DNA of 64,000 nt, from the NCBI GenBank assembly GCA_039621445.1, contig CP154954.1, forward strand, positions 29,047,837 to 29,111,836. Reading direction: 5' to 3'. This stretch comes from Euglena gracilis (Eukaryota). Positions 1 through 48,436 of this stretch are shown here, in pieces. Below the pieces are notes generated by a model. The model was not told where the DNA came from. It made no database searches and worked only from the letters and a program-made list of their open reading frames with translations. How positions within the stretch are numbered: position 1 is the first letter of the stretch; each line of letters starts with the position of its first letter. Position numbers and translations under genes: made by a program.

Positions 1-3000
1 TGGACCAAATTGGGCCTTACTCCGAGTAACCGAATGGGTGTTCCAGGAGGCCTCCAAAGTCAGGGGACCCGTTGGTTTCATGATTGTCGTGGTTTAATGG
101 TAAGAAAAACATGCAGCCCGAATGTTGGTTGCAAGAAATGAGCACATTTAGATGGGTGCATTCGACCATTTCGAAGGACACTTACCAGGTCAGCCCAGGT
201 TACCATGTAAAAATGGACCAAATTGGGCCTTACTCCGAGTAACCGAATGGGTGTTCCAGGAGGCCTCCAAAGTCAGGGGACCCGTTGGTTTCATGATTGT
301 CGTGGTTTAATGGTAAGAAAAACATGCAGCGGGAATGTTGGTTGCAAGAAATGAGCAGATTTAGATGGGTGCATTCGACCATTCCGGGGGACATTTACCA
401 GGTCAGCCCAGGTTACCATGTAAAAATGGACCAAATTGGGCCTTACTCCGAGTAACCGAATGGGTGTTCCAGGAGGCCTCCAAAGTCAGGGGACCCGTTG
501 GTTTCATGATTGTCGTGGTTTAATGGTAAGAAAAACATGCAGCCGGAAGGTTGGTTGCAAGAAATGAGCACACTTAGATGGGTGCATTCGACCATTCCGG
601 GGGACATTTACCAGGTCAGCCCAGGTTACCATGTAAAAATGGACCAAATTGGGCCTTACTCCGAGTAACCGAATGGGTGTTCCAGGAGGCCTCCAAAGTC
701 AGGGGACCCGTTGGTTTCATGATTGTCGTGGTTTAATGGTAAGAAAAACATGCAGCCGGAAGGTTGGTTGCAAGAAGTAGCACATTTAGATGGGTGCATT
801 CGACCATTCCGGGGGACATTTACCAGGTCAGCCCAGGTTACCATGTAAAAATGGACCAAATTGGGCCTTACTCCGAGTAACCGAATGGGTGTTCCAGGAG
901 GCCTCCAAAGTCAGGGGACCCGTTGGTTTCATGATTGTTGTGGTTTAATGGTAAGAAAAACATGCAGCGGGAATGTTGGTTGCAAGAAATGAGCACACTT
1001 AGATGGGTGCATTCGACCATTCCGGGGGACATTTACCAGGTCAGCCCAGGTTACCATGTAAAAATGGACCAAATTGGGCCTTACTCCGAGTAACCGAATG
1101 GGTGTTCCAGGAGGCCTCCAAAGTCAGGGGACCCGTTGGTTTCATGATTGTCGTGGTTTAATGGTAAGAAAAACATGCAGCGGGAATGTTGGTTGCAAGA
1201 AATGAGCAGATTTAGATGGGTGCATTCGACCATTCCGGGGGACATTTACCAGGTCAGCCCAGGTTACCATGAAAAAATGGACCAAATTGGGCCTTACTTC
1301 GAGTAACCGAATGGGTGTTCCAGGAGGCCTCCAAAGTCAGGGGACCCGTTGGTTTCATGATTGTCGTGGTTTAATGGTAAGAAAAACATGCAGCCGGAAG
1401 GTTGGTTTCAAGAAATAAGCACACTTAGATGGGTGCATTCGACCATTCCGGGGGAAATTTACCAGGTCAGCCCAGGTTACCATGTAAAACCGGACCAAAT
1501 TGGGCCTTACTCCGAGTAACCGAATGGGTGTTCCAGGAGGCCTCCAAAGTCAGGGGACCCGTTGGTTTCATGATTGTCGTGGTTTAATGGTAAGAAAAAC
1601 ATGCAGCGGGAATGTTGGTTGCAAGAAATGAGCACACTTAGATGGGTGCATTCAACCATTCCGGGGGACGTTTACCAGGTCAGCCCAGGTTACCATGCAA
1701 AAATGGACCAAATTGGGCCTTACTCCGAGTAACCGAATGGGTGTTCCAGGAGGCCTCCAAAGTCAGGGGACCCGTTGGTTTCATGATTGTCGTGGTTTAA
1801 TGGTAAGAAAAACATGCAGCCGGAAGGTTGGTTGCAAGAAATGAGCACATTTAGTTGGGTGCATTCGACCATTCCGGGGGACATTTACCAGGTCAGCCCA
1901 GGTTACCATGCAAAAATGGACCAAATTGGGCCTTACTCCGAGTAACCGAATGGGTGTTCCAGGAGGCCTCCAAAGCCAGGGGACCCGTTGGTTTCATGAT
2001 TGTCGTGGTTTAATGGTAAGAAAAACATGCAGCGAAAATGCTGGTTGCAAGAAATGAGCACATTTAGATGGGTGCATTCGACCATTTCGAAGGACACTTA
2101 CCAGGTCAGCCCAGGTTACCATGTAAAAATGGACCAAATTGGGCCTTACTCCGAGTAACCGAATGGGTGTTCCAGGAGGCCTCCAAAGTCAGGGGACCCG
2201 TTGGTTTCATGATTGTCGTGGTTTAATGGTAAGAAAAACATGCAGCGGGAATGTTGGTTGCAAGAAATGAGCAGATTTAGATGGGTGCATTCGACCATTC
2301 CGGGGGACATTTACCAGGTCAGCCCAGGTTACCATGAAAAAATGGACCAAATTGGGCCTTACTCCGAGTAACCGAATGGGTGTTCCAGGAGGCCTCCAAA
2401 GTCAGGGGACCCGTTGGTTTCATGATTGTCGTGGTTTAATGGTAAGAAAAACATGCAGCGGGAATGTTGGTTGCAAGAAATGAGCAAATTTAGATGGGTG
2501 CATTCGACCATTTCGGTGGACATTTACCAGTCAGCCCAGGTTACCATGTAAAAATGGACCAAATTGGGCCTTACTCCGAGTAACCGAATGGGTGTTCCAG
2601 GAGGCCTCCAAAGTCAGGGGACCCGTTGGTTTCATGATTGTCGTGGTTTAATGGTAAGAAAAACATGCAGCCGGAAGGTTGGTTGCAAGAAATGAGCAGA
2701 TTTAGATGGGTGCATTCGACCATTCCGGGGGAAATTTACCAGGTCAGCCCAGGTTACCATGTAAAAATGGACCAAATTGGGCCTTACTCCGAGTAACCGA
2801 ATGGGTGTTCCAGGAGGCCTCCAAAGTCAGGGGACCCGTTGGTTTCATGATTGTCGTGGTTTAATGGTAAGAAAAACATGCAGCCGGAAGGTTGGTTTCA
2901 AGAAATGAGCACATTTAGATGGGTGCATTCGACCATTCCGGGGGACATTTACCAGGTCAGCCCAGGTTACCATGTAAAAATGGACCAAATTGGGCCTTAC

Positions 3001-5616
3001 TCCGAGTAACCGAATGGGTGTTCCAGGAGGCCTCCAAAGTCAGGGGACCCGTTGGTTTCATGATTGTCGTGGTTTAATGGTAAGAAAAACATGCAGCGGA
3101 ATTGTTGGTTGCAAGAAACGAGATGGGTGCATTCGACCATTCCGGGGGACATTTACCAGGTCAGCCCAGGTTACCATGTAAAAATGGACCAAATTGGGCC
3201 TTACTCCGAGTAACCGAATGGGTGTTCCAGGAGGCCTCCAAAGTCAGGGGACCCGTTGGTTTCATGATTGTCGTGGTTTAATGGTAAGAAAAACATGCAG
3301 CCGGAAGTTTGGTTGCAAGAAATGAGCACATTTAGATGGGTGCATTCGACCATTCCGGGGGACATTTACCAGGTCAGCCCAGGTTACCATGTAAAAATGG
3401 ACCAAATTGGGCCTTACTCCGAGTAACCGAATGGGTGTTCCAGGAGGCCTCCAAAGTCAGGGGACCCGTTGGTTTCATGATTGTCGTGGTTTAATGGTAA
3501 AAAAAACATGCAGCGGGAATGTTGGTTGCAAGAAATGAGCACATTTAGATGGGTGCATTCGACCATTCCGGGGGACATTTACCAGGTCAGCCCAGGTTAC
3601 CATGTAAAAATGGACCAAATTGGGCCTTACTCCGAGTAACCGAATGGGTGTTCCAGGAGGCCTCCAAAGTCAGGGGACCCGTTGGTTTCATGATTGTCGT
3701 GGTTTAATGGTAAGAAAAACATGCAGCCGGAATGTTCGTTGCAAGAAATGAGCACACTTAGATGGGTGCATTCGACCATTCCGGGGGACATTTACCAGGT
3801 CAGCCCAGGTTACCATGTAAAAATGGACCAAATTGGGCCTTACTCCGAGTAACCGAATGGGTGTTCCAGGAGGCCTCCAAAGTCAGGGGACCCGTTGGTT
3901 TCATGATTGTCGTGGTTTAATGGTAAGAAAAACATGCAGCGGGAATGTTGGTTGCAAGAAATGAGCAGGTTTAGATGGGTGCATTCGACCATTCCGGGGG
4001 ACATTTACCAGGTCAGCCCAGGTTACCATGAAAAAATGGACCAAATTGGGCCTTACTCCGAGTAACCGAATGGGTGTTCCAGGAGGCCTCCAAAGTCAGG
4101 GGACCCGTTGGTTTCATGATTGTCGTGGTTTAATGGTAAGAAAAACATGCAGCGGGAATGTTGGTTGCAAGAAATGAGCAGATTTAGATGGGTGCATTCG
4201 ACCATTCCGGGGGACATTTACCAGGTCAGCCCAGGTTACCATGAAAAAATGGACCAAATTGGGCCTTACTCCGAGTAACCGAATGGGTGTTCCAGGAGGC
4301 CTCCAAAGTCAGGGGACCCGTTGGTTTCATGATTGTCGTGGTTTAATGGTAAGAAAAAAATGAGCGGGAACGTTGGTTGCAAGAAATGAGCAGATTTAGA
4401 TGGGTGCATTCGACCATTCCGGGGGACATTTACCAGGTCAGCCCAGGTTACCATGTAAAAATGGACCAAATTGGGCCTTACTCCGAGTAACCGAATGGGT
4501 GTTCCAGGAGGCCTCCAAAGTCAGGGGACCCGTTGGTTTCATGATTGTCGTGGTTTAATGGTAAGAAAAACATGCAGCCGGAAGGTTGGTTGCAAGAAAT
4601 AAGCACACATAGATGGGTGCATTCGACCATTCCGGGGGACATTTACCAGGTCAGCCCAGGTTACCATGTAAAAATGGACCAAATTGGGCCTTACTCCGAG
4701 TAACCGAATGGGTGTTCCAGGAGGCCTCCAAAGTCAGGGGACCCGTTGGTTTCATGATTGTCGTGGTTTAATGGTAAAAAAAACATGCAGCGGGAATGTT
4801 GGTTGCAAGAAATGAGCACACTTAGATGGGTGCATTCGACCATTCCGGGGGACATTTACCAGGTCAGCCCAGGTTACCATGTAAAAATGGACCAAATTGG
4901 GCCTTACTCCGAGTAACCGAATGGGTGTTCCAGGAGGCCTCCAAAGTCAGGGGACCCGTTGGTTTCATGATTGTCGTGGTTTAATGGTAAGAAAAACATG
5001 CAGCGGGAATGTTGGTTGCAAGAAATGAGCAGATTTAGATGGGTGCATTCGACCATTCCGGGGGACATTTACCAGGTCAGCCCAGGTTACCATGAAAAAA
5101 TGGACCAAATTGGGCCTTACTTCGAGTAACCGAATGGGTGTTCCAGGAGGCCTCCAAAGTCAGGGGACCCGTTGGTTTCATGATTGTCGTGGTTTACTGG
5201 TAAGAAAAACATGCAGCCGGAAGGTTGGTTTCAAGAAATAAGCACACTTAGATGGGTGCATTCGACCATTCCGGGGGAAATTTACCAGGTCAGCCCAGGT
5301 TACCATGTAAAACCGGACCAAATTGGGCCTTACTCCGAGTAACCAAATGGGTGTTCCAGGAGGCCTCCAAAGTCAGGGGACCCGTTGGTTTCATGATTGT
5401 TGTGGTTTATTGGTAAGAAAAACATGCAGCGGGAATGTTGGTTGCAAGAAATGAGCACACTTAGATGGGTGCATTCAACCATTCCGGGGGACGTTTACCA
5501 GGTCAGCCCAGGTTACCATGTAAAAATGGACCAAATTGGGCCTTACTCCGAGTAACCGAATGGGTGTTCCAGGAGGCCTCCAAAGTCAGGGGACCCGTTG
5601 GTTTCATGATTGTCGT
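1..5616. repeat. 213-bp tandem satellite, about 26 copies, runs off the left edge of the window
   Basis: The unit starting TGGACCAAATTGGGCCTTACTCCGAG recurs at 1, 214, 427, 640 and so on. Copies are nearly identical. The array ends abruptly after ...CATGATTGTCGT at 5616. Confidence 0.98.
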
Positions 5617-7055
5617 CCGTAGATGTCGGCCTCTGCTTCCAACAGCACTGGGCAGTTGGACTGGTGCTGCAGGCACCAACCGGCTCCAGACGTGGTAGTG
5701 TGAGACCCGCAGAGGGTGCACCGGACGTAGTAGTAGGTAGGCAGCAAAGGCGCGGGTCGCCCCCCGTCAGGGCCCGGCAGGGGCATGTCGGTGAGCCTTA
5801 TGAGAAACAGGTCACTCATTTGGAGGCTGCGTAGGATGTGCAGGAGGTCTCCAGAGTCCGGTCCTGGAAGACACCAGGGTCCGGGATTAGACTCAATGTC
5901 TCCACATGTCAGCAGATTTTCCCCCCGCCCCTGGCAAGGCAGCGCGGCACAAGACAGGTAGGGTACACGAGTCGACACCGCCTTGTTCTGGCGGTGGTAG
6001 AGCACCTCTATGTCAGTCCAGGTGCAGCGAAGGCAGCACACTTTGTGCAGCCAGGGAGGAGGGCGGTCGGGGATGTCCGGCCACGCTGCCGTGCGTGCCA
6101 CTGGGGGGTAGGGGGCGAGACAATTCTTGGGCCCGATCCGGGGTCGTGGCGGCGATGGGGGGGGTGGTGGGACAGCTGGGGGCGGCCGTTTCGGCCGCGC
6201 CGGGGGGGGCGACCACTGGAGGTCCTCCTCCCGGAGATGACCCGGGCGCTGGGCATGGAGCGCCTGAGCGAGGCGGATGGCCTCCCCCCTGGTCGGGATG
6301 CGGCGCGGGCAAGGCGAGGGAGGCGGTGCAGCGGCTGGCGCCCTTGCGCTCTCCAGGGGGGCGCCCCACAAGCGGTGACGGCGCACGAAGTCCAGCTCCC
6401 GGCCGTGTAATTCCCACCGCTCTGTGAGGAGCCGTAAGGTGCGGGCCAGCTTTTCGGTCCAGGTCTCCCCCCCTGCCTGCCGCCTGCTCTCCCTCCGAGC
6501 CAAAAATTTGGCCCGGAGTTCCCCCCGGGGGGTCCGTCCGCAGGGGTGGTCTTCTGCGCTCGGGGGGTCAGGTGGGCCTTCCTCCGGGCTTGGGGGAGGG
6601 GCCGGCACCGTTTCCTGCCACAACCCGGGCGGCTGTTCCACCCAGCCACCGAGGAACGTGGCGCCGTACTCCCACTGAGTACCATCCCAAGCATAGGGGG
6701 GCCGAGGGGGGGGTGCTGCGAAGATGCGGAAAGGGGCCGACTTGTTCCAGCCGGGGCCACTTTCATAGGCCAGGTCAAGCAGGGGGGCAGGAAGAGGGGA
6801 CCAGGGGCCCCCAGCCTCGCTTCCATCTGCTGTGGGGTCCTCCGTTCCCCTTTGGGGGGTTGGGCCGTCTTGGGGGTCTCCTCCCTGCTGGCGACGGGTG
6901 GGCCTGAGCCTTGGCCCAGCCACCCCGCTGACCGAGCTGGGGGTCTCCTCTCCAGCAGTTGCCAATCTGAAAGGGCTCCCCGGTTCCCCCACTCCAATTG
7001 TATTCTGTGAGCGCGGGCCAGATTTGAGATTTATTTTTGTAAGAACTGCCAGCAA
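5604..7055 (-). CDS. ORF2: Pro-rich ORF with a 2A (StopGo) peptide and CxxC motifs; probably a retroelement-type polyprotein, 3' end cut off by the satellite
   Basis: 483-codon open frame containing GRGENLLTCGDIESNPGP plus CCLRC and CTLC...C..H motifs. No in-frame ATG before the 2A. The TGA stop (5604-5606) lies inside the satellite unit. Confidence 0.6.
   Translation of the reverse strand: MLAVLTKINLKSGPRSQNTIGVGEPGSPFRLATAGEETPSSVSGVAGPRLRPTRRQQGGDPQDGPTPQRGTEDPTADGSEAGGPWSPLPAPLLDLAYESGPGWNKSAPFRIFAAPPPRPPYAWDGTQWEYGATFLGGWVEQPPGLWQETVPAPPPSPEEGPPDPPSAEDHPCGRTPRGELRAKFLARRESRRQAGGETWTEKLARTLRLLTERWELHGRELDFVRRHRLWGAPLESARAPAAAPPPSPCPRRIPTRGEAIRLAQALHAQRPGHLREEDLQWSPPPARPKRPPPAVPPPPPSPPRPRIGPKNCLAPYPPVARTAAWPDIPDRPPPWLHKVCCLRCTWTDIEVLYHRQNKAVSTRVPYLSCAALPCQGRGENLLTCGDIESNPGPWCLPGPDSGDLLHILRSLQMSDLFLIRLTDMPLPGPDGGRPAPLLPTYYYVRCTLCGSHTTTSGAGWCLQHQSNCPVLLEAEADIYGRQS
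5877..5930 (-). other. 2A ribosome-skipping peptide coding sequence (GRGENLLTCGDIESNPGP)
   Basis: Matches the D(V/I)ExNPGP consensus and closely resembles Thosea asigna virus T2A (EGRGSLLTCGDVEENPGP). Confidence 0.9.
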
Positions 7056-7152
7056 AAATTAGGCATTGCCTCACAGAGATTTTGGGGAATTACATTTTTC
7101 ACAGGCAAGCTGGCAAACAGTGTACAAGTTTGCGTGGGACTCTGAACTGGAT

Positions 7153-8448
7153 TCAAAGTATCAAGTCTTGTCTTCTGGGGTGCTGTGTGGGGAAGTTTGG
7201 GAAGAAGACCCCTGAAGGCTGAAAAGTTGGAATTGGCCAGAAGTCTGATGTGGTGAAATTATCTGGACACAATGGACCATCCCCCAACTTGCAATTCGCC
7301 TTGGGCTGTTCCACTCCCGACCCATCTGGGAGGGGGGGGGTGGTCCCCGATTTTTTCCGGATGCTTTTCTGTTTCAAACATGATTGGGCCATCTGGGTCA
7401 TCAATTCCCTTGTCGGGATGTTTTCCAGTTTCTGGGGGTGTCTCCCCCCAGACCTGTGGGGATTCCAACTCTGATGGGAGGGGGGGGGGGTGGCTTCATG
7501 CGCAATGGGATAGCGACAGCAATGTGGAGAGTGGTGGTGTTTCGTGTATTTTTTAGAGGGGCGATGTCGGTGATGTCGACTATGATGTCGATGTGGGCAC
7601 CTTGTCCTGGCTGTGGGTCGTTTCACCTGGCTGCATGATGATGATGATGCTGAGGAGGGTGATGATGAAGTAGAGGGTGACGATGATGTGGTTGAGGTCG
7701 ATCTTGTCGATGCTCGGGGTGGGGAATATGGAGGAGGTGGCTGGGCTTCCTGGTGCATGTCGAGGGGGGTGGGCTGCAGGAGTCTGGTTTGGTTGTGCAG
7801 CATTTGCTGCAGCTGCTGCATCTGTTGCAGCTGCTGTTGATGAAGCTGTAGCAGCGCCATGTCCATGTCCGGCTTGCTTCTGCTGTTCTTTTCCATCTCC
7901 ACCCTGCTCCTCGGAGTCAGGTCCATGTCCCACATGCCTCGTTTGAGGACTTGATCTGTGTTAGATGATGATGCTGCAGCTTTGGGCTCCATGCGGGGCT
8001 GGGGTTCCCGCCATCTGGGGCTGCAGGGCTGTCTCTGTCTCTCCTGCTGCCTGGGCCCTTCTGCATGGGGGGACCGTCTGGTGCTGCGGGGCTGTCTCTC
8101 CCGCTGCTTGGGCTGTCTGGGGCTGCAGGGCTGATACTCCTGCTGCCTGGGGTCATCACGTTTGGGGCTGCAGCGGGGCTGATACTCCCGCTGTCCCCGT
8201 CTGTCGCCACTGCTTCGGGGCTGGTACTCCCGCTGCTCGCAGGGATCGGGGTACTCCTGGTAGCTCTGCTCAATGTCCAGCTTCCTTCTTTTTCTGGACT
8301 GCTGCCTCATGGCCTGTCTCTGGGCCTTGTCTTTGTAGCGGTCGCCATATCGTTGACGGAGTGCCTCTTCCCAGGCTTCATCAGAGGCGTACTGCTCTTC
8401 TTGTCTGGAACGCCTCCTCACTTCGTGGTACTTCTTCCCATCGTCCAT
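7153..8448 (-). CDS. ORF1: intronless low-complexity protein (about 431 aa; R/Q/E repeats, RKRRK, poly-Q, poly-S, His-rich), function unknown
   Basis: ATG at 8448 (MDDGKKYHEV...), 114 nt downstream of a genomic SL copy; open to 7153; internal EYQPRS/CSP repeats. Confidence 0.6.
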   Translation of the reverse strand: MDDGKKYHEVRRRSRQEEQYASDEAWEEALRQRYGDRYKDKAQRQAMRQQSRKRRKLDIEQSYQEYPDPCEQREYQPRSSGDRRGQREYQPRCSPKRDDPRQQEYQPCSPRQPKQRERQPRSTRRSPHAEGPRQQERQRQPCSPRWREPQPRMEPKAAASSSNTDQVLKRGMWDMDLTPRSRVEMEKNSRSKPDMDMALLQLHQQQLQQMQQLQQMLHNQTRLLQPTPLDMHQEAQPPPPYSPPRASTRSTSTTSSSPSTSSSPSSASSSSCSQVKRPTARTRCPHRHHSRHHRHRPSKKYTKHHHSPHCCRYPIAHEATPPPSHQSWNPHRSGGRHPQKLENIPTRELMTQMAQSCLKQKSIRKKSGTTPPLPDGSGVEQPKANCKLGDGPLCPDNFTTSDFWPIPTFQPSGVFFPNFPTQHPRRQDLIL

Positions 8449-8562
8449 CGCCAAATTCTTGAGTAACACACCTCGCAATGTCCTGAAACTTCAGATTCCC
8501 CAGGTAAATGTTAATAAAGCTTGACCCCAACCCGGGGCTTTCAGGACAGGTTATGCGGAAGA

Positions 8563-8587
8563 CGAAAAAAAATAGACACTCAGAAAG
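8563..8587 (-). other. Genomic copy of the Euglena spliced-leader exon (CTTTCTGAGTGTCTATTTTTTTTCG)
   Basis: The reverse complement of CGAAAAAAAATAGACACTCAGAAAG matches 25 nt of the Euglena SL as I recall it (ACTTTCTGAGTGTCTATTTTTTTTCG). It is followed by TC, not a GT donor, so it is not an SL RNA gene. Confidence 0.88.
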
Positions 8588-10578
8588 AGGGTTCGCTAAA
8601 TTCAATAGGATGAACCCTTCAGGAATTAGGACCGTCATCTGCTCGCGATCACATTCCACTGGTTGACAGACCAAGAAGTGAAACCATGCAGTGACAGGTG
8701 GGTGCAATTGCTCGCGGTAGCCCTTCCAAACGACAAATAGCATGTCGACATGGGCCACGCGCACGTGCACGACACGCGCGACACACGTGTCGAGCCGTGC
8801 CGAACCATGCCGAATAAAAATGGGACAGACCCCCTTCCAACACTGCACCATTGCCCCCCCCCCCAGCGATTCCCACAGGCGGGACGGGAGTAGCTCACTG
8901 TCAGAGCACTTTTTTAAAAGAAAACCCCCAAAAGTGTTCAAAAATCGTCGTTTTTGGGGACGTTTAAAAATCACCTTTTGGCAAATGTGCTTGAAATTAA
9001 CAATTTTTTGCGAACATCCCAAAAACCAAAAAAACTTGCCAAAATGATTGAATGAGTGTCCGAGGTTCGGGTTGGGAACAGCTCGGGGGGGGGGGGGGGA
9101 CCGATCCCCCCCCTGTTCCCTTTGGGCTCAGAGGTCCCATCGTGAAGTGGTGGGGAACAGGTGGTTTTTTCCAGTTTCCAAGTGGCATTTAACGTTGCTT
9201 TTTTGTTACAGGGCTCACTGATCAAGTTCCCTCCCGAACCCAATTTTCAGCCAATTATCATAATCCTGGCAACCTCAAAACCCCAAATCCCATAAATTGG
9301 CACTCCTCACCCAAGATGTTAGCTCACTTTTTTTTGCTTTTCTATGTTTACAGCTAAACCCGAAAATGTCGGCCCTGAGTGCCGAAAACCCCGGCTCCAA
9401 GTACAAAATACTGGCCCGTGGTGCCCAAACTTGGTGAAGACTGTCCTGGATAAAGCATCTTTTGCAAATTTTTTTGGGTACAAGGAGCTGTTCCTGGGTT
9501 TTGGGGACTTGGGCTGAAATTAAAGAGATTTTTTTTTGCCGTGGACCTTCAATGGCGTTTGTTGGGTTTTTTTTTAGAAAAAGAAAACACGGTTCTTTTT
9601 TTTTTAACCGTGCTTTTCTTTTCCGGTTCAGGCGTGAAGCCAGAGCCCCTGATACACGGTTTCCATATCGAGAACTGTGTCCCAAACGCCGGTTTGGGCG
9701 TGAACCTGGTGCCTGGGACGCCAGTTCGGGTGTCAGCCCGAACCGGCAGTTCGGGCGTGAACCCGGATCCCCCTAGAAAACCTTTTCAGCTGTGTCCCAG
9801 ATGGGAATCACGGCCAATTTCGCCCCAAGTACCCATCAATCCCCAATGCCCATCAATCGAAAGCTTTCAGCAGATGGAATTCGGCCATAATGCACATAGC
9901 TCTTATTTTCAGCGATCGTGTATTCCAAAATTTGACATATTAATTTGTCAAAACCCACAGTTCAGGTTGCATATTGCCCAAAATTGGCCAAAAGGAAATT
10001 GTTGTTCAAACCCCCAATTTCCGGAAGACCCCCCTTGCCTTAGCTGTTCCTCTGGGGCTGAAGGGGGGGGGGGAAGTTTTCGCCCGTTTCGGAGCCTTTT
10101 GCAAAACCAGGAAAATTCCCAAATTTCAGGGGGGGGAAATTTTCGGGGGGGGGACAATTTACGGCTAGGGACTGTAATCATATTTGAGTTTTGTGGGTTG
10201 GGACTTTTTTTTTGTACATGCAAGGGCAGCACAGCTTCACCACTTGCATGGCCCCTGGGTCGAGGACTTGACATCTTTTGGGTTTTTTTTGTCCATTGAA
10301 CCATCCCCGGCATATATCTATCAATAAGACCCACCGCCCTGAACAGAGGTGTTCGGGAATATACCATAACAACCCCACAACATACGGCAAATGAATTCCG
10401 AATCCCGGTCGGCTTCATGGCTTCAAAGAATAGAAGGGACGAGGCAAAGTGCCCGAAACGGCCGAAAATTCCCCCCCCCCCTGGTCAAGAGCCCAAAAAC
10501 CCCTCCCTAGGGGGGGGGAAATTTACGCCCAGGGACTGTACCACATGTCTACAAACCCCTTTGGACACTTGTTGGTAC

Positions 10579-10618: not shown

Positions 10619-34384
<23,766 letters not shown>

Positions 34385-36189: not shown

Positions 36190-38660
36190 GTGGTGAGGTG
36201 AGGTCCTGCTTTCTTTGCCGGCTGCTCCGTTCCGGTGTGTGGTTGGTGTGCCTGGGGGTGCTGCTTGCTGTGTTTTTTTTGTTTCCGGAGTAGGCTAACC
36301 CCTATCATTTATCTAACTCCGGTCATTTATTTAAAAAAGGCAGAACACACAATTGTAAAAAAAAACCTCCACTTGAAATTATACAACACAAGCTCAACTG
36401 GAATATTTCTCGGGATTATTGAAAGGAAACCCAGGAAAGCCCCCAAAGATGCAGACACCCCCCAAAAGCACGGGAGCCCCCCCACCAAGCGACCATGCGA
36501 AAGAGGTGTGCATGGCCACGACGGCCCCCGAGGTGTCAGTCTCACAAAAAAACCGCCGGCGAGCAAGGCGTGGCCTCACGGCACAGGAAGTGGGGGGGGA
36601 GGGTCAACGAGGGGAGAAGCACGACCATTCGGGCTGCGCACACTCCGGGCGTGAGGTCCTGCTTCTTTTGCCGGCAGCAGGACCTCGCCCCTCTCTCGTG
36701 CTTCGCCATCATGGTCCGTTCCTCCCAGTCATCCTTCCTGGGAGCTAAAAAAAACAAAGAGAGGCGATTCGCCCTCGACAATCCCCCCCGGTCGGTTTTA
36801 CTCAAGGGAGTACCAGACCAAGACCTTTCGAGCCCGACCCTCCTCCCGCAAAAGGAAATTTGCTCCCAAAAGCCCTCAAAAGCCCTCGGTCAGCAGAAAA
36901 TGGGGGCCAGCGCCTGCAGGGTACAAAAGCGGCGCCACACGCCGGCCGTCTGTTTTGTGGATTGCGATGCGTTGGGCTCGGGTGTTGCCGCTTTGTGCAG
37001 CCTCGCAAAAAGTTGGCTGCGTTGTCTTCCAAGGGGCGCTCACCAGGCATGGCCTCATAAGTTCTTTGCGTTCCGCCCCCGCAGCACCTCCCTCCCTTGT
37101 CGGTTTCCCGAGGGTTTTTGAGTCACAGACGAGCACCATCGGCCAACTCCGACGACGCGGAACGACGGGTGGACACCTGAACAAAGCGAACCCAACTGCA
37201 CAGCACCGCCGGCGAATAAGGAAAGGCTCCGAAGGTCTTTGTGCTCCGCCGGCGGCGTCCCTTCCTCGCTTGTGGTTTTCCTCGCTCGCCTTCCCATCTT
37301 CTTGTGGTCCGTTCCTCTTCCTCGCTGAGACGTGGGTGTCCGAGGTGACTTAAAGTGCCTTAAAATGCTCTAAATCTGTTGGTGAACACTGTGGAAACAG
37401 ATGATTTGGAGCATTTAAATGCCACCTCAGCGTGGATAAGAAGTTTGTGGCAGGAGCTGCAGGAAATAAGGAGACATTTATGTGCAGGAAATAGCCAATC
37501 CTTCAGTCTGGACCCCAGACCTGACTTAACAACCACCAGGTTGTCACAACCATCCCAGCATAGGGGCAGGGGTAGAATTAACAGCAGATCTCAGCAGAAC
37601 AGACCCAGAAGCAGGTCCAACTTTCGTTATGGGAAAGGAAAAGGAAAGGGGAAAGGGGGGAAAGGCAAGGGGAACCACGAATGATGGGACCCTGGTGCAG
37701 ATGTACCCACAGGGTCTACCAGAAAACATTCTGAACAGTGGGTCACCGTTACAAGAGAAAATAAATCACAATCCGGCTGGAACAAAACAAAACATGCACC
37801 CCACAATGCACATGGATGGGTCCACGGGAAAACCTGGAACATTGGGTCACATTGGGGGCAGACAATGTGCTGCTGCAAGCAATAAAAAAAAAAGAGGTGA
37901 AGGCACCAGTGTTCAGCATCCAAGGCCGAAACAAAATATATCAAAAACTGCAGATTTCACACCAGCCACACAGGAAACCGTCACCGAGTACTTGAACACA
38001 GGTGCCATAGACCACTCACAAACGAGGAGTGGACAAAAACCAGCCAGTGGACACTAAAATTGACCAGAGAGAAAAAAAATACCGGAAAAATCAGGTTGAT
38101 TACAGACCTCAGGAACCTAAACCAGTGCCAAAACATCGTACGACACAACACAGACACCTGTAAGACCCTGCCGCAGACTCTGAAGCAAAAAGATTTGCAC
38201 TGGGGGATACCTCTGGACATCCAATCATTTATCCACCACTTGCAGGTGCACTCCCACATTCAGAGGTGGATGTGTTTCTAAATCAGCGAAAACGCTTTTC
38301 AGATCCAGGCCCTTCCATTGGGATGAGCTCTCAGCCCCTGGTGGTCACAGAAACTGACAAAACCACTGAGGGCCTCGCTGAACCAGAAAAACAGACAACA
38401 TGTGTGGTATGCGGACGACTTTCTACTGCTGGGGAAGACAGCAGAATCCACCAGGTTGAGGGTAGCTTCCCTCATCAAACAACTGATAAAGTGTGTGACC
38501 AGGCGGATTTGGGAAAAGACAATGAACGACCCAGAACAGACATTGACGTACCTGGGACACCAGATCGCCCTGACATCCAACAAAATCAGGCCCCTGGAAC
38601 ACAAGAACCAATTGACATTGACTCGGATAAAACACAAACTGAAGGGACAGTGCTTCCAAC
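36190..38660 (+). mobile_element. Degenerate, 3'-truncated DIRS-like retrotransposon (left-ITR-like end, gag C-terminus, RT)
   Basis: The ITR-like GTGAGGTCCTGCT...TTCCGGAGTAGGC at 36198-36295 resembles the ITR of the minus-strand element. Basic GKGKGKGKGGKG gag tail at ~37630-37680. RT fragments KIRLITDLRNLN, IQALPLG and WYADDFLLLG, with stops and frameshifts. Confidence 0.8.
37950..38660 (+). pseudogene. Reverse transcriptase pseudogene (DIRS type)
   Basis: EYLNTGAI..., RLITDLRNLN, LDIQSFIHHL, YADD motif at ~38408-38419; in-frame stops. Confidence 0.85.
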
Positions 38661-41600
38661 CCTGGCGGAGAGGAGGCCAGCAGCCAGCCTGATCGAGGAC
38701 ACATCGATTGGCACACTTCTTCAGAGGACAAACCTGCCAGTTTATACATGTACACTCCTGCCCCCCTGGTGGAATGGGGGGCCCACTGGGGGGTTACCCC
38801 GAGGTTATCCAACAAGCGTTTTGTCAAACTCCCAATGGTTTTTGCAGACAGGGGTGTAAATGGAGGTTTTAAACTTAATAATAAATGTCCCCCAGGTGGA
38901 GCACAGTGAGATGTCAAGCTGACATACTTCTTCATGTTGAACCAGGGGCAAATATTGGGACATGAAGGAATTCGGGGGATTTCCTCCGACTGAGTCTGTC
39001 TCCAACCCTTTCTTCTGACCTGGACAAAAATCTCGCCATCAACCTGGGACACTGTCCTGAAGGTTCGGCTCAAGTCCACTGAGCGATGCAAACAGATGAG
39101 TCTGAAACTTAAAATGACTTGGTCCCTCAGGTCACTGAGGCACTCTGGGGGAGGTGCTGCTGCCAACTTCTGAAGTAATGATTCAGGATTCCAAAAAGAA
39201 GGATACCTGGGGGTGGATGGGTGGATTGACATTGACTCGGATAAAACACAAACTGAAGGGACAGTGGTTCCAACCCTGGCGGAGAGGAGGCCAGCCGCCA
39301 GCCTGATCGAGGACCCCAGTCGGACTCCGGTGAAGAATGGTCCAGGAGGAAGGGACAGCGAAGGCGGAGCACAAGACAACAGTGAGGTCCTGCTCTTCTT
39401 TCCGGCTGTTGTTTTTGTGTTTGGTGTTGGTTGTGGTGCTTCTTACTGCGATGAGTTGTCGGAGTAGGCGGACTCGGAGATGTTGTCGGACTTCTCGGTG
39501 GCTGGCGGAGGTGGGTTGCTGGCCTGTCTGTGGGTGAATGGAAATTTCTCGGGGGGGGGGCTGACCGACTTTTTTGTTCTCTTCCGGGTCGGGGCGGGCG
39601 GGCTCACTGTTGTCTTGTGCTCCACCTTCGCTGTCCCCTCCTCCTGGATCATTCTTCACCGGAGTCCGAGACTGCTCCGGCTCCGCAGAAGACCCCAGTG
39701 AGGATTTGTGCACTTTTTTTTGGACAGCAACCCCCGCATTTTTTCCCGCTTCCAACCGCAAATAATGGGAAGAAAAGGCCTTCACATTTTTCCATTTTCT
39801 AATTTGGCACACTTTTTCAGAGGACAAACCTGCCAGTTTATACATGTACACTCCTGCCCCCCTGGTGGAATGGGGGGCCCACTGGGGGGGGTACCCCATG
39901 GTTATCCAACAATCGTTTTGTCAAACTCCGAATGGTTTTTGCAGACAGGGGGGTAAATGGAGGTTTTAAACTTAATAATAAATGTCCCCCAGGAGGGGCA
40001 CAGTGAGATGTCAAACTGACATATTTCTTCATGTTGAACCAGGGGCAAATATTGGGACATGAAGGAATTTGGGGGATTTCCTCCGACTGAGTCTGTCTCC
40101 AACCCTTTCTTCTGACCTGGGCAAACATCTTGCCATCAACCTGGGACACTGTCCTGAAGGTTCGGCTCAAGTCCACTGAGCGATGCAAACAGATGAGTCT
40201 GAAACTTAAAATGACTTGGTCCCTCAGGTCACTGAGGCACTCTGGGGGAGGTGCTGCTGCCAACTTCTGAAGTAATGATTCAGGATGCCAGAAAGAAGGA
40301 TACCTGGGGGTGGATGGGTGGATTGACATTGACTCGGATAAAACACAAACTGAAGGGACAGTGGTTCCAACCCTGGCGGAGAGGAGTCCTGCCGCCAGCC
40401 TGATCGAGGACCCCAGTCGGACTCCGGTGAAGAATGCTACAGAAGGAACAGACAGCGAAGGCGGAGCACAAGACAACAGTGAGGTCCTGCTCTTCTTTCC
40501 GGCTGTTGTTTTTGTGTTTGGTGTTGGTTGTGGTGCTTCTTACTGCGATGAGTTGTCGGAGTAGGCGGACTCGGAGATGTTGTCAGACTTCTCGGTGGCT
40601 GGCGGAGGTGGGTTGCTGGCCTGTCTGTGGGTGAATGGAAATTTCTCGGGGGGGGGGGGCTGACCGACCTTTTTGTTCTCTTCCGGGTCGGGGCGGGCGG
40701 GCTCACTGTTGTCTTGTGCTCCACCTTCGCTGCACCTCCTCCTGGATCATTCTTCACCGGAGTCAGAGTCTGCTCCGGCTCCGCAGAAGACCCCAGTGAG
40801 GATTTGGCACCTTTTTTTGGACAGCAACCCCCGCATTTTTTCCCGCTTCCAACCGCAAATAATGGGAAGAAAAGGCCTGCACATTTTTCCATTTTCTAAT
40901 TTGGCACACTTCTTCAGAGGACAAACCTACCAGTTTGTACACGTACACTCCTGCCCCCCTGGTGGAATGAGGGGCCCACTGTGGGGGGGGGGTACCCCGT
41001 GGTTTTCCAACAGTCGTTTTGTCAAACTCCCAATGGTTTTTGCGGACAGGGGGGTAAATGGAGGTTTTAAACTTAATAATAAATGTCCCCCAGGGGGGGC
41101 ACAGTGAGATGTCAAACTGACATATTTCTTCATGTTGAACCAGGGGCAAATATTGGGACATGAAGGAATTTGGGGGATTTCCTCCGACTGAGTCTGTCTC
41201 CAACCCTTTCTTCTGACCTGGACAAACATCTTGCCATCAACCTGGGACACTGTCCTGAAGGTTCGGCTCAAGTCCACTGAGCGATGCAAACTGATGAGTC
41301 TGAAACTTAAAATGACTTGGTCCCTCAGGTCACTGAGGCACTCTGGGGGAGGTGCTGCTGCCAACTTCTGAAGTAATGATTCAGCATTCCAAAAAGAAGG
41401 ATACCTGGGGGTGGATGGGTGGATTGACATTGACTCGGATAAAACACAAACTGAAGGGACAGTGGTTCCAACCCTGGCGGAGAGGAGGCCAGCCGCCAGC
41501 CTGATCGAGGACCCCAGTCGGACTCCGGTGAAGAATGCTCCAGAAGGAACGGACAGGGAAGGTGGAGCACAAGACAACAGTGAGGTCCTGCTCTTCTTTC

Positions 41601-44600
41601 CGGCTGTTGTTTTTGTGTTTGGTGTTGGTTGTGGTGCTTCTTACTGCGATGAGTTGTCGGAGTAGGCGGACTCGGAGATGTTGTCAGACTTCTCGGTGGC
41701 TGGCGGCGGTGGGTTGCTGGCCTGTCTGTGGGTGAATTGAAATTTCTCGGGGGGGGGGGCTGACCGACTTTTTTGTTCTCTTCCGGGTCGGGGCGGGCGG
41801 GCTCACTGTTGTCTTGTGCTCCACCTTCGCTGTCCCCTCCTCCTGGATCATTCTTCACCGGAGTCCGAGACTGCTCCGGCTCCGCAGAAGACCCCAGTGA
41901 GGATTTGTGCAGTTTTTTTTGGACAGCAACCCCCGCATTTTTTCCCGCTTCCAACCGCAAATAATGGGAAGAAAAGGCCTGCACATTTTTCCATTTTCTA
42001 ATTTGGCACACTTCTTCAGAGGACAAACCTGCCAGTTTATACATGTACACTCCTGCCCCCCTGGTGGAATGGGGGGCCCACTGGGGGGGTACCCCATGGT
42101 TATCCAACAATCGTTTTGTCAAACTCCCAATGGTTTTTGCAGACAGGGGGGTAAATGGAGGTTTTAAACTTAATAATAAATGTCCCCCAGGAGGGGCACA
42201 GTGGGATGTCAAACTGACATATTTCTTCATGTTGAACCAGGGGCAAATATTGGGACATGAAGGAATTTGGGGGATTTCCTCCGACTGAGTCTGTCTCCAA
42301 CCCTTTCTTCTGACCTGGGCAAACATCTTGCCATCAACCTGGGACACTTTCCTGAAGGTTCGGCTCAAGTCCACTGAGCGATGCAAACAGATGAGTCTGA
42401 AACTTAAAATGACTTGGTCCCTCAGGTCACTGAGGCACTCTGGGGGAGGTGCTGCTGCCAACTTCTGGAGTAATGATTCAGGATTCCAGAAAGAAGGATT
42501 CCTGGGGGTGGATGGGTGGATTGACATTGACTCGGATAAAACACAAACTGAAGGGACAGTGGTTCCAACCCTGGCGGAGAGGAGGCCTGCCGCCAGCCTG
42601 ATCGAGGACCCCAGTCGGACTCCGGTGAAGAATGCTACAGAAGGAACAGACAGCGAAGGCGGAGCACAAGACAACAGTGAGGTCCTGCTCTTCTTTCCGG
42701 CTGTTGTTTTTGTGTTTGGTGTTGGTTGTGGTGCTTCTTACTGCGATGAGTTGTCGGAGTGGGCGGACTCGGAGATGTTGTCGGACTTCTCGGTGGCTGG
42801 CGGCGGTGGGTTGCTGGCCTGTCTGTGGGTGAATTGAAATTTCTCGGGGGGGGGGGGCTGACCGACTTTTTTGTTCTCTTCCGGGTCGGGGCGGGCGGGC
42901 TCACTGTTGTCTTGTGCTCCACCTTCGCTGTCCCCTCCTCCTGGATCATTCTTCACCGGAGTCCGAGACTGCTCCGGCTCCGCAGAAGACCCCAGTGAGG
43001 ATTTGGCACCTTTTTTTGGACAGCAACCCCCGCATTTTTTCCCGCTTCCAACTGCAAATAATGGGAAGAAAAGGCCTGCACATTTTTCCATTTTCTAATT
43101 TGGCACACTTCTTCAGAGGACAAACCTACCAGTTTGTACACGTACACTCCTGCCCCCCTGGTGGAATGAGGGGCCCACTGTGGGGGGGGGTACCCCGTGG
43201 TTTTCCAACAGTCGTTTTGTCAAACTCCCAATGGTTTTTGCGGACAGGGGGGTAAATGGAGGTTTTAAACTTAATAATAAATGTCCCCCAGGGGGGGCAC
43301 AGTGAGATGTCAAACTGACATATTTCTTCATGTTGAACCAGGGGCAAATATTGGGACATGAAGGAATTTGGGGGATTTCCTCCGACTGAGTCTGTTTCCA
43401 ACCCTTTCTTCTGACCTGGACAAACATCTTGCCATCAACCTGGGACACTGTCCTGAAGGTTCGGCTCAAGTCCACTGAGCGATGCAAACTGATGAGTCTG
43501 AAACTTAAAATGACTTGGTCCCTCAGGTCACTGAGGCACTCTGGGGGAGGTGCTGCTGCCAACTTCTGAAGTAATGATTCAGCATTCCAAAAAGAAGGAT
43601 ACCTGGGGGTGGATGGGTGGATTGACATTGACTCGGATAAAACACAAACTGAAGGGACAGTGGTTCCAACCCTGGCGGAGAGGAGGCCAGCCGCCAGCCT
43701 GATCGAGGACCCCAGTCGGACTCCGGTGAAGAATGATCCAGGAGGAAGGGACAGCGAAGGCGGAGCACAAGACAACAGTGAGGTCCTGCTCTTCTTTCCG
43801 GCTGTTGTTTTTGTGTTTGGTGTTGGTTGTGGTGCTTCTTACTGCGATGAGTTGTCGGAGTAGGCGGACTCGGAGATGTTGTCGGACTTCTCGGTGGCTG
43901 GCGGCGGTGGGTTGCTGGCCTGTCTGTGGGTGAATTGAAATTTCTCGGGGGGGGGGCTGACCGACTTTTTTGTTCTCTTCCGGGTTGGGGCGGGCGGGCT
44001 CACTGTTGTCTTGTGCTCCACCTTCGCTGCACCTCCTCCTGGATCATTCTTCACCGGAGTCCGAGACTGCTCCGGCTCCGCACAAGAACCCAGTGAGGAT
44101 TTGTGCACCTTTTTTTGGACAGCAAGCCCCGCATTTTTTCCCGCTTCCAACCGCAAAAAATGGGAAGAAAAGGCCTGCACATGTTTCCATTTTCTAATTT
44201 GGCACACTTCTTCAGAGGACAAACCTGCCAGTTTATACATGTACACTCCTGCCCCCCTGGTGGAATGGGGGGCCCACTGGGGGGTTACCCCGTGGTTATC
44301 CAACAGGCGTTTTGTCAAACTCCCAATGGTTTTTGCAGACAGGGGGGTAAATGGAGGTTTTAAACTTAATAATAAATGTCCCCCAGGTGGAGCACAGTGA
44401 GATGTCAAGCTGACATACTTCTTCATGTTGAACCAGGGGCAAATATTGGGACATGAAGGAATTTGGGGGATTTCCTCCGACTGAGTCTGTCTCCAACCCT
44501 TTCTTCTGACCTGGACAAACATCTTGCCATCAACCTGGGACACTTTCCTGAAGGTTCGGCTCAAGTCCACTGAGCGATGCAAACAGATGAGTCTGAAACT

Positions 44601-45804
44601 TAAAATGACTTGGTCCCTCAGGTCACTGAGGCACTCTGGGGGAGGTGCTGCTGCCAACTTCTGAAGTAATGATTCAGGATTCCAGAAAGAAGGATACCTG
44701 GGGGTGGATGGGTGGATTGACATTGACTCGGATAAAACACAAACTGAAGGGACAGTGGTTCCAACCCTGGCGGAGAGGAGGCCTGCCGCCAGCCTGATCG
44801 AGGACCCCAGTCGGACTCCGGTGAAGAATGATCCAGGAGGAAGGGACAGCGAAGGCGGAGCACAAGACAACAGTGAGGTCCTGCTCTTCTTTCCGGCTGT
44901 TGTTTTTGTGTTTGGTGTTGGTTGTGGTGCTTCTTACTGCGATGAGTTGTCGGAGTAGGCGGACTCGGAGATGTTGTCAGACTTCTCGGTGGCTGGCGGC
45001 GGTGGGTTGCTGGCCTGTCTGTGGGTGAATTGAAATTTCTCGGGGGGGGGGGCTGACCGACTTTTTTGTTCTCTTCCGGGTCGGGGCGGGCGGGCTCACT
45101 GTTGTCTTGTGCTCCACCTTCGCTGTCCCCTCCTCCTGGATCATTCTTCACCGGAGTCCGAGTCTGCTCCGGCTCCGCAGAAGACCCCAGTGAGGATTTG
45201 TGCACCTTTTTTTGGACAGCAACCCCCGCATTTTTTCCCGCTTCCAACCGCAAATAACGGGAAGAAAAGGCCTGCACATTTTTCCATTTTCTAATTTGGC
45301 ACACTTCTTCAGAGGACAAACCTACCAGTTTGTACACGTACACTCCTGCCCCCCTGGTGGAATGAGGGGCCCACTGGGGGGGGTACCCCATGGTTTTCCA
45401 ACAGTCGTTTTGTCAAACTCCCAATGGTTTTTGCGGACAGGGGGGTAAATGGAGGTTTTAAACTTAATAATAAATGTCCCCCAGGGGGGGCACAGTGAGA
45501 TGTCAAACTGACATATTTCTTCATGTTGAACCAGGGGCAAATATTGGGACATGAAGGAATTTGGGGGATTTCCTCCGACTGAGTCTGTCTCCAACCCTTT
45601 CTTCTGACCTGGGCAAACATCTTGCCATCAACCTGGGACACTGTCCTGAAGGTTCGGCTCAAGTCCACTGAGCGATGCAAACAGATGAGTCTGAAACTTA
45701 AAATGACTTGGTCCCTCAGGTCACTGAGGCACTCTGGGGAGGTGCTGCTGCCAACTTCTGAAGTAACGATTCAGGATTCCAAAAAGAAGGATACCTGGGG
45801 GTGG
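38611..45804 (-). repeat. Tandem array of a ~1.1-kb unit (flank + right ITR + ICR + tyrosine recombinase catalytic domain), about 7 copies, the first internally deleted
   Basis: The landmark GGA(T)ACCTGGGGGTGG recurs at ~39201, 40298, 41399, 42496, 43597, 44692 and 45789. Confidence 0.95.
41325..42527 (-). CDS. Tyrosine recombinase catalytic-domain copy with an unbroken frame (array copy 4)
   Basis: From ATG at 42527: MSIHPSTPR..FW...LHRSVDL (R)...HSTRGAG (HxxR)...KWKN (W)...FSSHY (Y). Another unbroken copy lies in 43839-44870. Confidence 0.6.
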   Translation of the reverse strand: MSIHPSTPRNPSFWNPESLLQKLAAAPPPECLSDLRDQVILSFRLICLHRSVDLSRTFRKVSQVDGKMFAQVRRKGWRQTQSEEIPQIPSCPNICPWFNMKKYVSLTSHCAPPGGHLLLSLKPPFTPLSAKTIGSLTKRLLDNHGVPPQWAPHSTRGAGVYMYKLAGLSSEEVCQIRKWKNVQAFSSHYLRLEAGKNAGVAVQKKLHKSSLGSSAEPEQSRTPVKNDPGGGDSEGGAQDNSEPARPDPEENKKVGQPPPPRNFNSPTDRPATHRRQPPRSLTTSPSPPTPTTHRSKKHHNQHQTQKQQPERRAGPHCCLVLHLPCPFLLEHSSPESDWGPRSGWRLASSPPGLEPLSLQFVFYPSQCQSTHPPPGILLFGMLNHYFRSWQQHLPQSASVT

Positions 45805-46110
45805 TTGTGTTCCCTTGTCGTTTGTTGGTTGCCAACAGGGGTAAAAACCTTAACATGTGAAAACCAAGAAGCTGGACCACAGCACTATAAGCATTCCTGG
45901 CCTGGGCCTCACTGAAGGTGAAATTTTTTATGATGCCAGAAGCGACTAATTCTGGGCTTATGGAGTTGAAGTCCTGCTGGGACATGGTCAAAACTCCCCA
46001 CAGAGTCCTGAAGGCAGAGTTATATCTCGCCAAGGAAAGATTGTGACTTAAGAAATTGTCAACCACTGAGGGGGGGATCTGTTGCCTCTGTAACAACTGC
46101 CTGACAATAA
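45200..46110 (-). pseudogene. DIRS tyrosine recombinase (frameshifted at homopolymers)
   Basis: ARYNSAFRTLW...PRYPSFW...HRSVDL...CPW...HSTRGAG...W...YLRL. Confidence 0.85.
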
Positions 46111-46900: not shown

Positions 46901-47007
46901 CTGGCTTGCCCCTGGGTGTCTGTCTCTTCATCTTCATTTCATGAAATTGGACTTGATGATCCCACAAATTTTTCTGTAGGGACAAAACCTACCGAAGTGT
47001 CCTGAAA

Positions 47008-47926: not shown

Positions 47927-48436
47927 ACTGTAAAGGGGTCCTAACCCAAAATTTGGCCAAAATTTGCCTGAGTGGGGCCGAAAATCACTGAAATACCACC
48001 TTTTGGTTTTCAGTCGAATTTAACCAAGGGAAAAGATTATTATGGTTCGGCTTGAAGGCCTGAACTCAATTTTTGACCTTGCTGTGCCGATTCTTTGAAA
48101 TTTTCAAGATCGGCCGACCAATTTTCCACAGTAGGATTTGCCATTTTTCCCTAATTAACCTAAGAAAGTCCCCACTCGAACCCACCAATTTCAAACTCAA
48201 TCTCACACACAGGGTTCTTTGCCCACCCAATGCACTGGCACAAATCTACAAAAAATATCAATTGATTGTGCATGCAAGAACCAGGAATCTGAAAAAAAAA
48301 TGAAATTCAAGGTTCACTGGAAAAAGTCCAAGGACAAAAAAAAAGTTTGAAAAGTTTGGCTTCTAAGCCCGGCGGCTGCCTCAACAAAAAGCCGAGGCCG
48401 AAGGATCCGCAAAAACATCGAACCAAGAAAGGGTTT

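Follow-up and report, generated by a model that had tools for sequence, protein, structure and literature searches.

In a 64,000-nucleotide stretch of the Euglena gracilis genome (contig CP154954.1 of assembly GCA_039621445.1, positions 29,047,837 to 29,111,836; hereafter the window, numbered from its first letter), the minus strand carries a 2A-like, or StopGo-like, peptide within a long open reading frame (ORF) that is cut by a satellite array. Upstream of this frame lie a 292-nucleotide (nt) piece of low GC content, a second open frame (ORF1) and an exact copy of the Euglena spliced leader (Table 1). The stop-to-stop frame, whose translation we call P0001, extends over 484 codons (5604-7058) and contains the peptide QGRGENLLTCGDIESNPGP (5877-5933, leading Q included); the 18 residues from GRG to NPGP, GRGENLLTCGDIESNPGP, occupy 5877-5930, and the wider translated context is ...PYLSCAALPCQGRGENLLTCGDIESNPGPWCLPGPDSG.... 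The predicted skip falls between the Gly codon (5882-5880) and the Pro codon (5879-5877), with the junction between 5880 and 5879, and GDIESNPGP is followed in frame by 90 more codons. No Met occurs in the frame upstream of the motif, and Cys-rich stretches flank it on both sides, VCCLRC...H...SCAALPC before and CTLC...H...C after. An initial annotation of the window had proposed a T2A-like StopGo peptide between two Cys-rich modules, in a frame lacking an upstream ATG. Translation agrees with all of this, and the motif was recovered again by pattern search and by comparison with a protein family; the strand, which that annotation left unstated, is minus.

Table 1. Features on and around the 2A frame, in window coordinates
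Feature	Position	Strand	Basis
Satellite of 213 bp, 26.4 copies, 96% matches	1..5616		Tandem Repeats Finder
Stop codon of the 2A frame, inside the first satellite unit; a truncation point, no natural end	5604..5606	-	Satellite call, alignment A1
Downstream product if skipping occurs: Pro-initiated module of 91 amino acids, C-x2-C-x14-H-x3-C	5607..5879	-	Alignment A3, AlphaFold, tblastn
Metal-ligand codons of the 91-residue module	Cys 5720-5718, Cys 5711-5709, His 5666-5664, Cys 5654-5652	-	
2A/StopGo-like peptide QGRGENLLTCGDIESNPGP	5877..5933	-	Translation, pattern search, family consensus
Upstream part of the 2A frame, P0001 residues 20-375	5934..7001	-	BLASTP, tblastn, 0 stops in 484 codons
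Low-GC piece of 292 nt with the ORF1 stop codon, flanked by the 4-nt direct repeat GAAT	7002..7293	-	GC, frame arithmetic, contigs
ORF1, 385 codons between its first AUG and the 292-nt piece; basic, of low complexity, rich in Q, S and H	7294..8448	-	ORF list, sequence
Euglena spliced-leader relic, 24/24 nt exact	8563..8586	-	Pattern search

The motif is a real class A 2A sequence belonging to a conserved family, and its sequence predicts skipping activity. It shares GRG..LLTCGD[VI]E.NPGP with the T2A peptide of Thosea asigna virus, EGRGSLLTCGDVEENPGP, and with the 2A1 peptide of Providence virus, GGRGSLLTCGDVESNPGP (PMC12338488, supplement), as the T2A-like assignment of the initial annotation implied. 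The match is near letter-for-letter in GD[V/I]ExNPGP and in the upstream GRG..LLTCG, whereas two residues separate GRG from LL in the window and its family and only one does so in both viral peptides. A Leu-rich stretch of about ten residues lies upstream in F2A, T2A, P2A and E2A (PMC12338488); such a stretch is expected of class A sequences, and in the window it reads GRGENLLTCG. The back-translated core D[VI]ExNPGP matched the window once, against 0.00 matches expected from 100 dinucleotide-preserving shuffles. By our own arithmetic, the eight-residue core alone should arise with a chance of about 9e-10 per position and strand, so a few chance matches would be expected per Gb-sized genome. 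The extended pattern GRGxxLL[ST]CGD[VI]ExNPGP matched neither a viral contig collection nor 596 billion bases of prokaryotic genome sequence. Additionally, the frame of the motif contains no stop in its 484 codons whereas the other five frames of the same stretch contain 5-14, and thus it is no by-product of high GC content. P0001 matched no Pfam family and no PDB sequence at E<=1. In four sequencing runs presumed to be RNA, the bin holding most of the 2A (5768-5931) is uncovered, which has no bearing on expression; their cover elsewhere in the window is thin and comes mostly from related repeats.

We found that the frame belongs to a family in which such sites recur. A phmmer search of 1.84 billion representative proteins with the last 165 residues of P0001 returned 39 relatives at E<=1e-3, five of them at E<=1e-10. 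At least one strict D[VI]ExNPGP is present in 36 of the 39: 26 proteins carry two to five copies, ten carry one and three carry none, for 70 sites in total, most often spaced 104-126 residues apart. The family consensus is GRGxxLL[S/T]CGD[V/I]ExNPGP, and the window agrees with it at all conserved positions. Across 67 unique sites the upstream residues G (75%), R (76%), G (75%), L (78%, position -12), L (75%, position -11), S/T (88%) and C (81%) are conserved, positions -8 to 0 of the logo being fixed by the search motif. Conservation thus stands above that of the flank, with 75-88% from -17 to -9 and no residue above 36% from +1 to +8. The best match, P0002, shares 66% identity over the 86 residues that follow the site, and P0003 aligns to P0001 residues 192-472 (BLASTP, E 6e-30), which argues that the frame upstream of the site is conserved too. 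Word-based protein searches with P0001, among proteins of near and longer lengths, and with ORF1 found no relatives, a weak negative because P0003 was missed as well.

The commonest module of the family has about 95 residues and typically follows each site. Its residues C54, C57, H72 and C76, spaced C-x2-C-x14-H-x3-C, are invariant in all 23 rows of alignment A3. With a module profile, near-complete copies were detected in 26 of the 39 relatives, a descriptive count because 22 of the 39 went into the profile; six of the 26 lie outside the profile-building set. The AlphaFold model of the 91-residue product, made with this alignment, is confident (predicted local distance difference test, pLDDT, 83.5; predicted template-modelling score, pTM, 0.70) and consists of a helix, three strands and two helices. 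Foldseek gave the model no clear structural relative (best E 1.3), and VIA-align gave a best Z of 4.2, with the zinc-finger regions of TUT1/TUT4 at 3.8-3.9 and several double-stranded-RNA-binding domains at 3.2-3.4. Pfam zf-C2H2 matches, on the relative P0016, were sub-threshold only. Judged from its invariant ligand positions, the module would be a zinc-binding domain, in line with the Pro-initiated, zinc-finger-like product that the initial annotation had foreseen, and it probably binds RNA or another nucleic acid.

The cassettes keep the company of retroelement proteins. A Pfam scan of the 39 relatives (E<=0.01) placed a Dam-type adenine methyltransferase (PF05869) in six, two of them above the Pfam cut-off; a reverse transcriptase (RT; RVT_1, PF00078) in four, two above the cut-off; and SLBP_RNA_bind (PF15247) in two, both above it. 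The scan returned no endonuclease family, apurinic/apyrimidinic endonuclease (APE) included. The parts of P0041 run 2A, Dam, 2A, module, 2A, 2A, long linker, RT, and in P0014 a module precedes Dam. A profile of nine relatives, five of which reach into the RT, matched in the PDB the R2 proteins 9nl3_A (3.6e-6) and 9dou_A (4.8e-6) and, at 4.1e-6 and weaker, LINE-1 ORF2p (8c8j_A), with no retroviral RT at E<=1. Thus, the RT of the relatives is of the class that lacks long terminal repeats (non-LTR). Its best matches include R2 as well as L1, and Pfam finds no APE with it, unlike the situation in APE-type elements. The C-terminus of the relative P0025, which had no PDB sequence match at E<=0.01, carries a Cys/His cluster and acidic motifs, which may correspond to the Cys/His and nuclease motifs of R2-type elements. 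The joint presence of 2A cassettes, Dam, SLBP and a non-LTR RT suggests that the family is a retroelement polyprotein using ribosome skipping as RNA viruses do.

Two side observations concern these same proteins. In P0010 and P0027 the RNA-binding domain of the histone stem-loop-binding protein (SLBP; E 6e-17 and 5e-22) forms a cassette of its own between two 2A sites, an unexpected accessory domain for a retroelement. When profile A4 was compared with the PDB, a signal peptidase subunit and a nicotinic receptor fusion matched at the 2A positions only; both chains are evidently constructs with laboratory 2A tags, and the matches thus confirm the likeness to 2A peptides in common use.

The window's copy is truncated at its 3' side. 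The satellite abuts and cuts the 2A frame and extends beyond the start of the window, and in alignment A1 the window ends three residues after ...EAD while P0002 continues for eight residues to the next GRG. On the other side of the motif, preceding-module tails of P0017, P0022, P0023 and P0036 map by tblastn to 5823-6059, a diverged Cys module just before the 2A, and residues 2-94 of P0003 map to 6210-6485. Each 213-bp satellite unit is open in all six frames over 50-84 codons, and spurious repeats fill the ORF list as a result.

The 5' side of the locus bears a spliced-leader relic. The leader 24-mer matched the window once, against 0.00 expected, and 25 of the 26 nt of the published E. gracilis leader (quoted in PMC6242988 and PMC5654406) agree; this exact match also bears out the protist origin that the initial annotation had assigned. 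The bases that follow are TC and the first AUG, that of ORF1 (8448), lies 114 nt further on; with TC in place of a GT donor, the relic does not look like a spliced-leader RNA gene. In the four runs the leader bin reaches a depth of up to 8305, with many different loose ends at the 3' edge of the leader (8553-8558), the pattern of a leader spliced onto many mRNAs. Rfam gave no match in the whole window at gathering scores, and the depth peak at 8556-8719 is thus no curated RNA gene. The dinoflagellate spliced leader, sought as a short motif, had no match in the window at up to three mismatches. The best reading of a leader that is encoded in the DNA and precedes an untranslated region (UTR) and an AUG is that a trans-spliced mRNA was copied back, the leader marking the 5' end of the retrocopy; we found no report in the literature of such relics at retrocopy 5' ends in Euglena.

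The 292-nt piece interrupts the two frames, which run in different phases: ORF1 ends at 7156, and 7058 is where the 2A frame opens. GC content is 0.45 in the piece and 0.68 and 0.55 in its flanks. Excision of the 292 nt (1 modulo 3) would join the ORF1 codon ending at 7294 to the 2A-frame codon starting at 7001, in phase. One contig of run X17 carries 8008-7483, 7331-7294 and 7001-6924 together and skips exactly 7002-7293, and contigs of X18, X19 and X20 cover 7009-7294 heavily and break off at the edges of the piece; these patterns suggest either the insertion of a dispersed, perhaps mobile, repeat or an intron, perhaps of the nonconventional euglenid type. GT-AG ends are absent in all five possible registers; the piece also lacks terminal inverted repeats and a fold signal (z -0.37) and occurs only once in the window. 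The lack of an upstream ATG would be accounted for most simply if ORF1 and the 2A frame were one frame of about 850 codons starting at 8448. Of the origins that the initial annotation had offered for translation of the 2A frame, the link to ORF1 thus gains support from the in-phase join and from the contig that skips the piece, in a run presumed to be RNA.

Contigs of X17 also differ from the window elsewhere. The 151-nt stretch 7332-7482, bounded by a direct repeat of a C-rich run, is absent from the contig that skips the 292 nt; either a paralogue has lost it or the window has gained a small duplication. A second, short contig (depth 8.3) connects the leader (8563), by way of 27 letters of other sequence, with position 6072, which lies some 140 nt upstream of the 2A; the contig does not extend as far as the 2A itself. 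It may represent a trans-spliced transcript of a related copy starting inside the frame.

Taken together, we regard it as fairly probable that the window holds a spliced-leader-tagged, interrupted and satellite-truncated copy of a retroelement-type multi-2A polyprotein gene. Family members are long frames in which recurring GRGxxLL[S/T]CGD[V/I]ExNPGP sites delimit small modules, and the window's copy would be a retrocopy of the trans-spliced mRNA of such an element or of a derivative, later interrupted and truncated. The free-standing nuclear gene of unknown kind implied by the initial annotation gives way, in our reading, to one copy of a 2A-cassette family with Dam and non-LTR RT domains. 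Nor is this copy an intact gene: the satellite array cuts it, it lacks the RT and Dam of the family, and its two nearest relatives have lost the motif. It probably no longer makes the complete product. Because no RT of this family was found in the window, we file the locus as derived from a retroelement family, not as an element.

At a 2A site, the ester of peptidyl-tRNA(Gly) is hydrolysed without a stop codon and translation restarts at Pro (PMC12338488; PMC12846837). By analogy with viral class A peptides, the same mechanism would be expected at the window's site. With ...GDIESNPG in the exit tunnel the ribosome would pause, its A site occupied by Pro-tRNA; no bond would form between Gly and Pro, and the upstream chain would be released ending in NPG before translation resumes from Pro. 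In the window, with ORF1 joined, the products would be an upstream chain of about 759 residues that ends in NPG and the 91-residue Pro-initiated C2HC module. In intact family members each cassette (Dam, modules, SLBP, RT protein) would be freed separately, in ratios set by the efficiency of the individual sites.

Several observations weigh against this interpretation. The RT and Dam of the family were not found in the window, where tblastn of all relatives matches 5625-6059 and 6210-6485 only and a Pfam scan of the 146 frames of at least 121 amino acids gives only a weak, unrelated RVT_1 match at 47011-47886, about 40 kb away; the link to retroelements thus comes from the relatives and not from this locus. 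ORF1 has no homologues in protein searches and no similarity to family members, its single Pfam match (SR-25) being sub-threshold, and the searches made gave no relatives for the first 190 residues of the 2A frame. The contig that skips the 292 nt has a depth of 2, is 92-98% like the window, comes from a run only presumed to be RNA, and also skips the 151 nt, which is not a multiple of three. The satellite has removed the 3' end, and a poly(A) tract or target-site duplication is consequently unreadable. Because the phmmer query contained the 2A, one site per match is partly given by construction; the extra sites are independent of it.

The relatives themselves add further counterpoints. The two closest, P0003 and P0002, lack an intact site: P0003 reads NPGL and QTQPGP at its 2A positions, and P0002 reads the homologous stretch in another frame, comparable to an alternative frame of the window. 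Conservation among paralogous copies, on which the initial annotation had let its claim depend, is therefore strong in the family as a whole, whereas the closest lineage shows decay. JGI metagenome, ENA and Logan assemblies are the source of the relatives, whose hosts may not be euglenid. A scan of metagenome contigs with the family alignment, which could have supplied the DNA context of the relatives, yielded 419 candidates and 27 loci. By regular-expression count every locus has a single strict 2A site, and nearly all of them are unrelated to the family. The GRG form occurs in two of the 27 only, L001 and L003, neither of which has a complete module; the translation of L001 shows an additional WDIESNPGP upstream.

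Among other explanations, a working host gene, domesticated or never mobile, fares best, and we consider it unlikely. Here a trans-spliced mRNA would join ORF1 and the 2A frame (ORF2) across a nonconventional intron at 7002-7293, the 2A would free a small zinc-finger protein, and the satellite would lie in a further intron or past a shortened but functional end. A frame open over 484 codons where the others have 5-14 stops, the intact state of the conserved 2A residues and of all four metal-ligand positions, the in-phase join with its 292-nt-skipping contig, and the X17 contig from the leader to 6072, which hints at trans-spliced transcripts of related copies, all speak for such a gene. However, the stop codon comes from the satellite where the closest relative runs on to the next GRG, and a DNA-encoded leader before the first AUG marks a retrocopy and not an ordinary gene. 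The 292-nt piece, moreover, has neither GT-AG ends in the five registers nor a fold signal (z -0.37), and the sites have decayed in the nearest relatives.

The change in base composition at the piece raises a different possibility, in which two unrelated neighbours lie side by side: a leader-tagged ORF1 retrogene ending at about 7000-7150 and a separate GC-rich fragment of a 2A retroelement, the in-phase join being a one-in-three coincidence. GC rises from 0.45-0.58 to 0.68 at about 7001, ORF1 is unlike any family member, and the contigs on 7009-7294 extend into neither flank. Against this, the X17 contig made of 8008-7483, 7331-7294 and 7001-6924 links ORF1-like and ORF2-like sequence in at least one other copy or transcript, and the 2A frame remains open as far as 7058, well before the first residue that aligns with a relative. 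We judge such a juxtaposition distinctly improbable. More improbable by far is an endogenous fragment of a tetravirus- or picorna-like RNA virus that carried its T2A-like site into the genome: among named 2A peptides the closest are indeed viral, T2A and Providence virus 2A1 GGRGSLLTCGDVESNPGP (PMC12338488, supplement), but neither P0001 nor the 39 relatives contain a capsid, helicase, protease or RNA-dependent RNA polymerase (RdRp) family of Pfam, the relatives carry RT, Dam and SLBP domains, and the viral contig collection contains no match to the extended pattern. A chance match in a GC-rich open frame, which the eight-residue core alone would allow a few times per Gb of six-frame translation by our own arithmetic, is refuted for practical purposes by the fit of 18 of 19 positions to the family consensus, by homology reaching about 95 residues past the site and about 180 before it, and by the empty searches with the extended pattern, including 596 Gb of prokaryotic DNA.

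The reading as a truncated, leader-tagged copy of a multi-2A polyprotein gene invites a broader suggestion, which we offer tentatively and hold to be well short of probable. Non-LTR retrotransposons of euglenids, and of the microbial eukaryotes that host the relatives, may be expressed in the manner of RNA viruses, from one long frame cut co-translationally at up to five T2A-like StopGo sites. The products would be Dam, at least one C2HC RNA-binding module, an SLBP-like RNA binder and an RT-endonuclease; as the mRNAs would be trans-spliced, new copies would carry the spliced leader in their DNA. If this were true, the near-identity to the 2A peptides of tetraviruses would point to an exchange of recoding modules between RNA viruses and retroelements. 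The setting of the sites differs from that of viral 2A sequences, since the flanking proteins of the window and the family are non-viral and the family site recurs up to five times per frame beside RT and Dam.

2A-like sites are already known from non-LTR retrotransposons (L1Tc/ingi and Odon et al. 2013, PMC3708506). The L1Tc/ingi elements of trypanosomatids are the nearest parallel, belonging to the same phylum, Euglenozoa, and to the same element class as the window's family, and carrying a functional class A site in frame (PMC12338488, Table S1; PMC3708506). The score of 0.76 listed for the L1Tc 2A indicates that 2A works in Euglenozoa (PMC12338488, Table S1). However, L1Tc/ingi has only one site, placed N-terminally in an APE-type ORF, with KLLLSGD or KMLVSGD upstream and not GRGxxLLTCGD (PMC12338488), and lacks the 2A-flanked zinc modules, Dam domain and spliced-leader relic of the window and its family. 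In animal APE-type non-LTR elements the 2A likewise lies in the N-terminal region of the ORF, in some cases with a zinc-binding PHD before the enzyme domains (PMC3708506). A 2026 preprint (bioRxiv 10.64898/2026.09.24.754024) counts 580 RT contigs with 2A, about 79% of them non-LTR-like and some associated with protists, and speaks of 2A-mediated polyprotein processing in RT-bearing virome contigs.

Two further groups of elements share single traits with the locus. The DAM-TEs (bioRxiv 10.64898/2026.05.21.726589) are eukaryotic retroelements with a prokaryote-like Dam, as in the window's relatives, and the RT of E. gracilis DAM elements branches with LINE/L1 in that preprint. Its available text contains no occurrence of '2A-like' or 'self-cleaving', and the window's copy itself is without Dam. 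The DinoSL retrogenes of dinoflagellates (PMC6050394, PMC12014239) have a DNA-encoded leader upstream of the 5' UTR and first AUG, as in the window, where the leader relic is, in contrast, euglenid.

Catalogues of 2A sequences give the locus its context. The 2025 catalogue lists hundreds of eukaryotic sites, dinoflagellates included (PMC12338488). In the accessible part of its supplement 'Euglenida' does not occur, the Euglenozoa rows listed are all kinetoplastids, and the commonest peptides of our family, SCGDVEANPGP and TCGDVEANPGP, are likewise absent (PMC12338488). The cassettes with C2HC, Dam and SLBP and the euglenid host go unmentioned in the main texts of the 2A catalogues and preprints, in so far as these were available, and the preprint supplements may hold such elements. 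Literature on Euglena with 2A-like or 2A peptides consisted, among the matches listed, of transgene tools or unrelated work only. Thus, 2A in non-LTR elements is known, and the window adds a new host lineage, the euglenids, while its relatives stand out by the architecture of their cassettes.

2A sites serve routinely as laboratory tools, and the mapping of their natural occurrence beyond RNA viruses has only recently begun. The direct biological weight of the locus is small because it is probably a dead fragment. Its relatives point to an unusually modular use of 2A, with many sites per frame, each of which would free a small zinc-binding module or an accessory enzyme. If confirmed, the family would supply dozens of closely related natural 2A variants on which structure and function could be studied and a case for how retroelements set protein ratios, and the DNA-encoded spliced leader would serve as a marker for dating Euglena retrocopies.

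Elsewhere in the window, the minus strand at about 38400-48000 holds at least five near-identical repeats of an ORF starting EAPQPTPNTKTTAGKK..., accompanied by frames with a weak RVT_1 match (47011-47886). Two frames, 39186-39920 and 44621-45412, carry a motif that we assume to be that of tyrosine recombinases. The cluster is probably made of DIRS-like retroelement copies and is unrelated to the 2A family by tblastn. On the plus strand, protein-kinase gene fragments lie at 11245-11610, 22439-22924 and 26916-27716, the last with a weak Pkinase match; their spread over at least 15 kb implies long introns.

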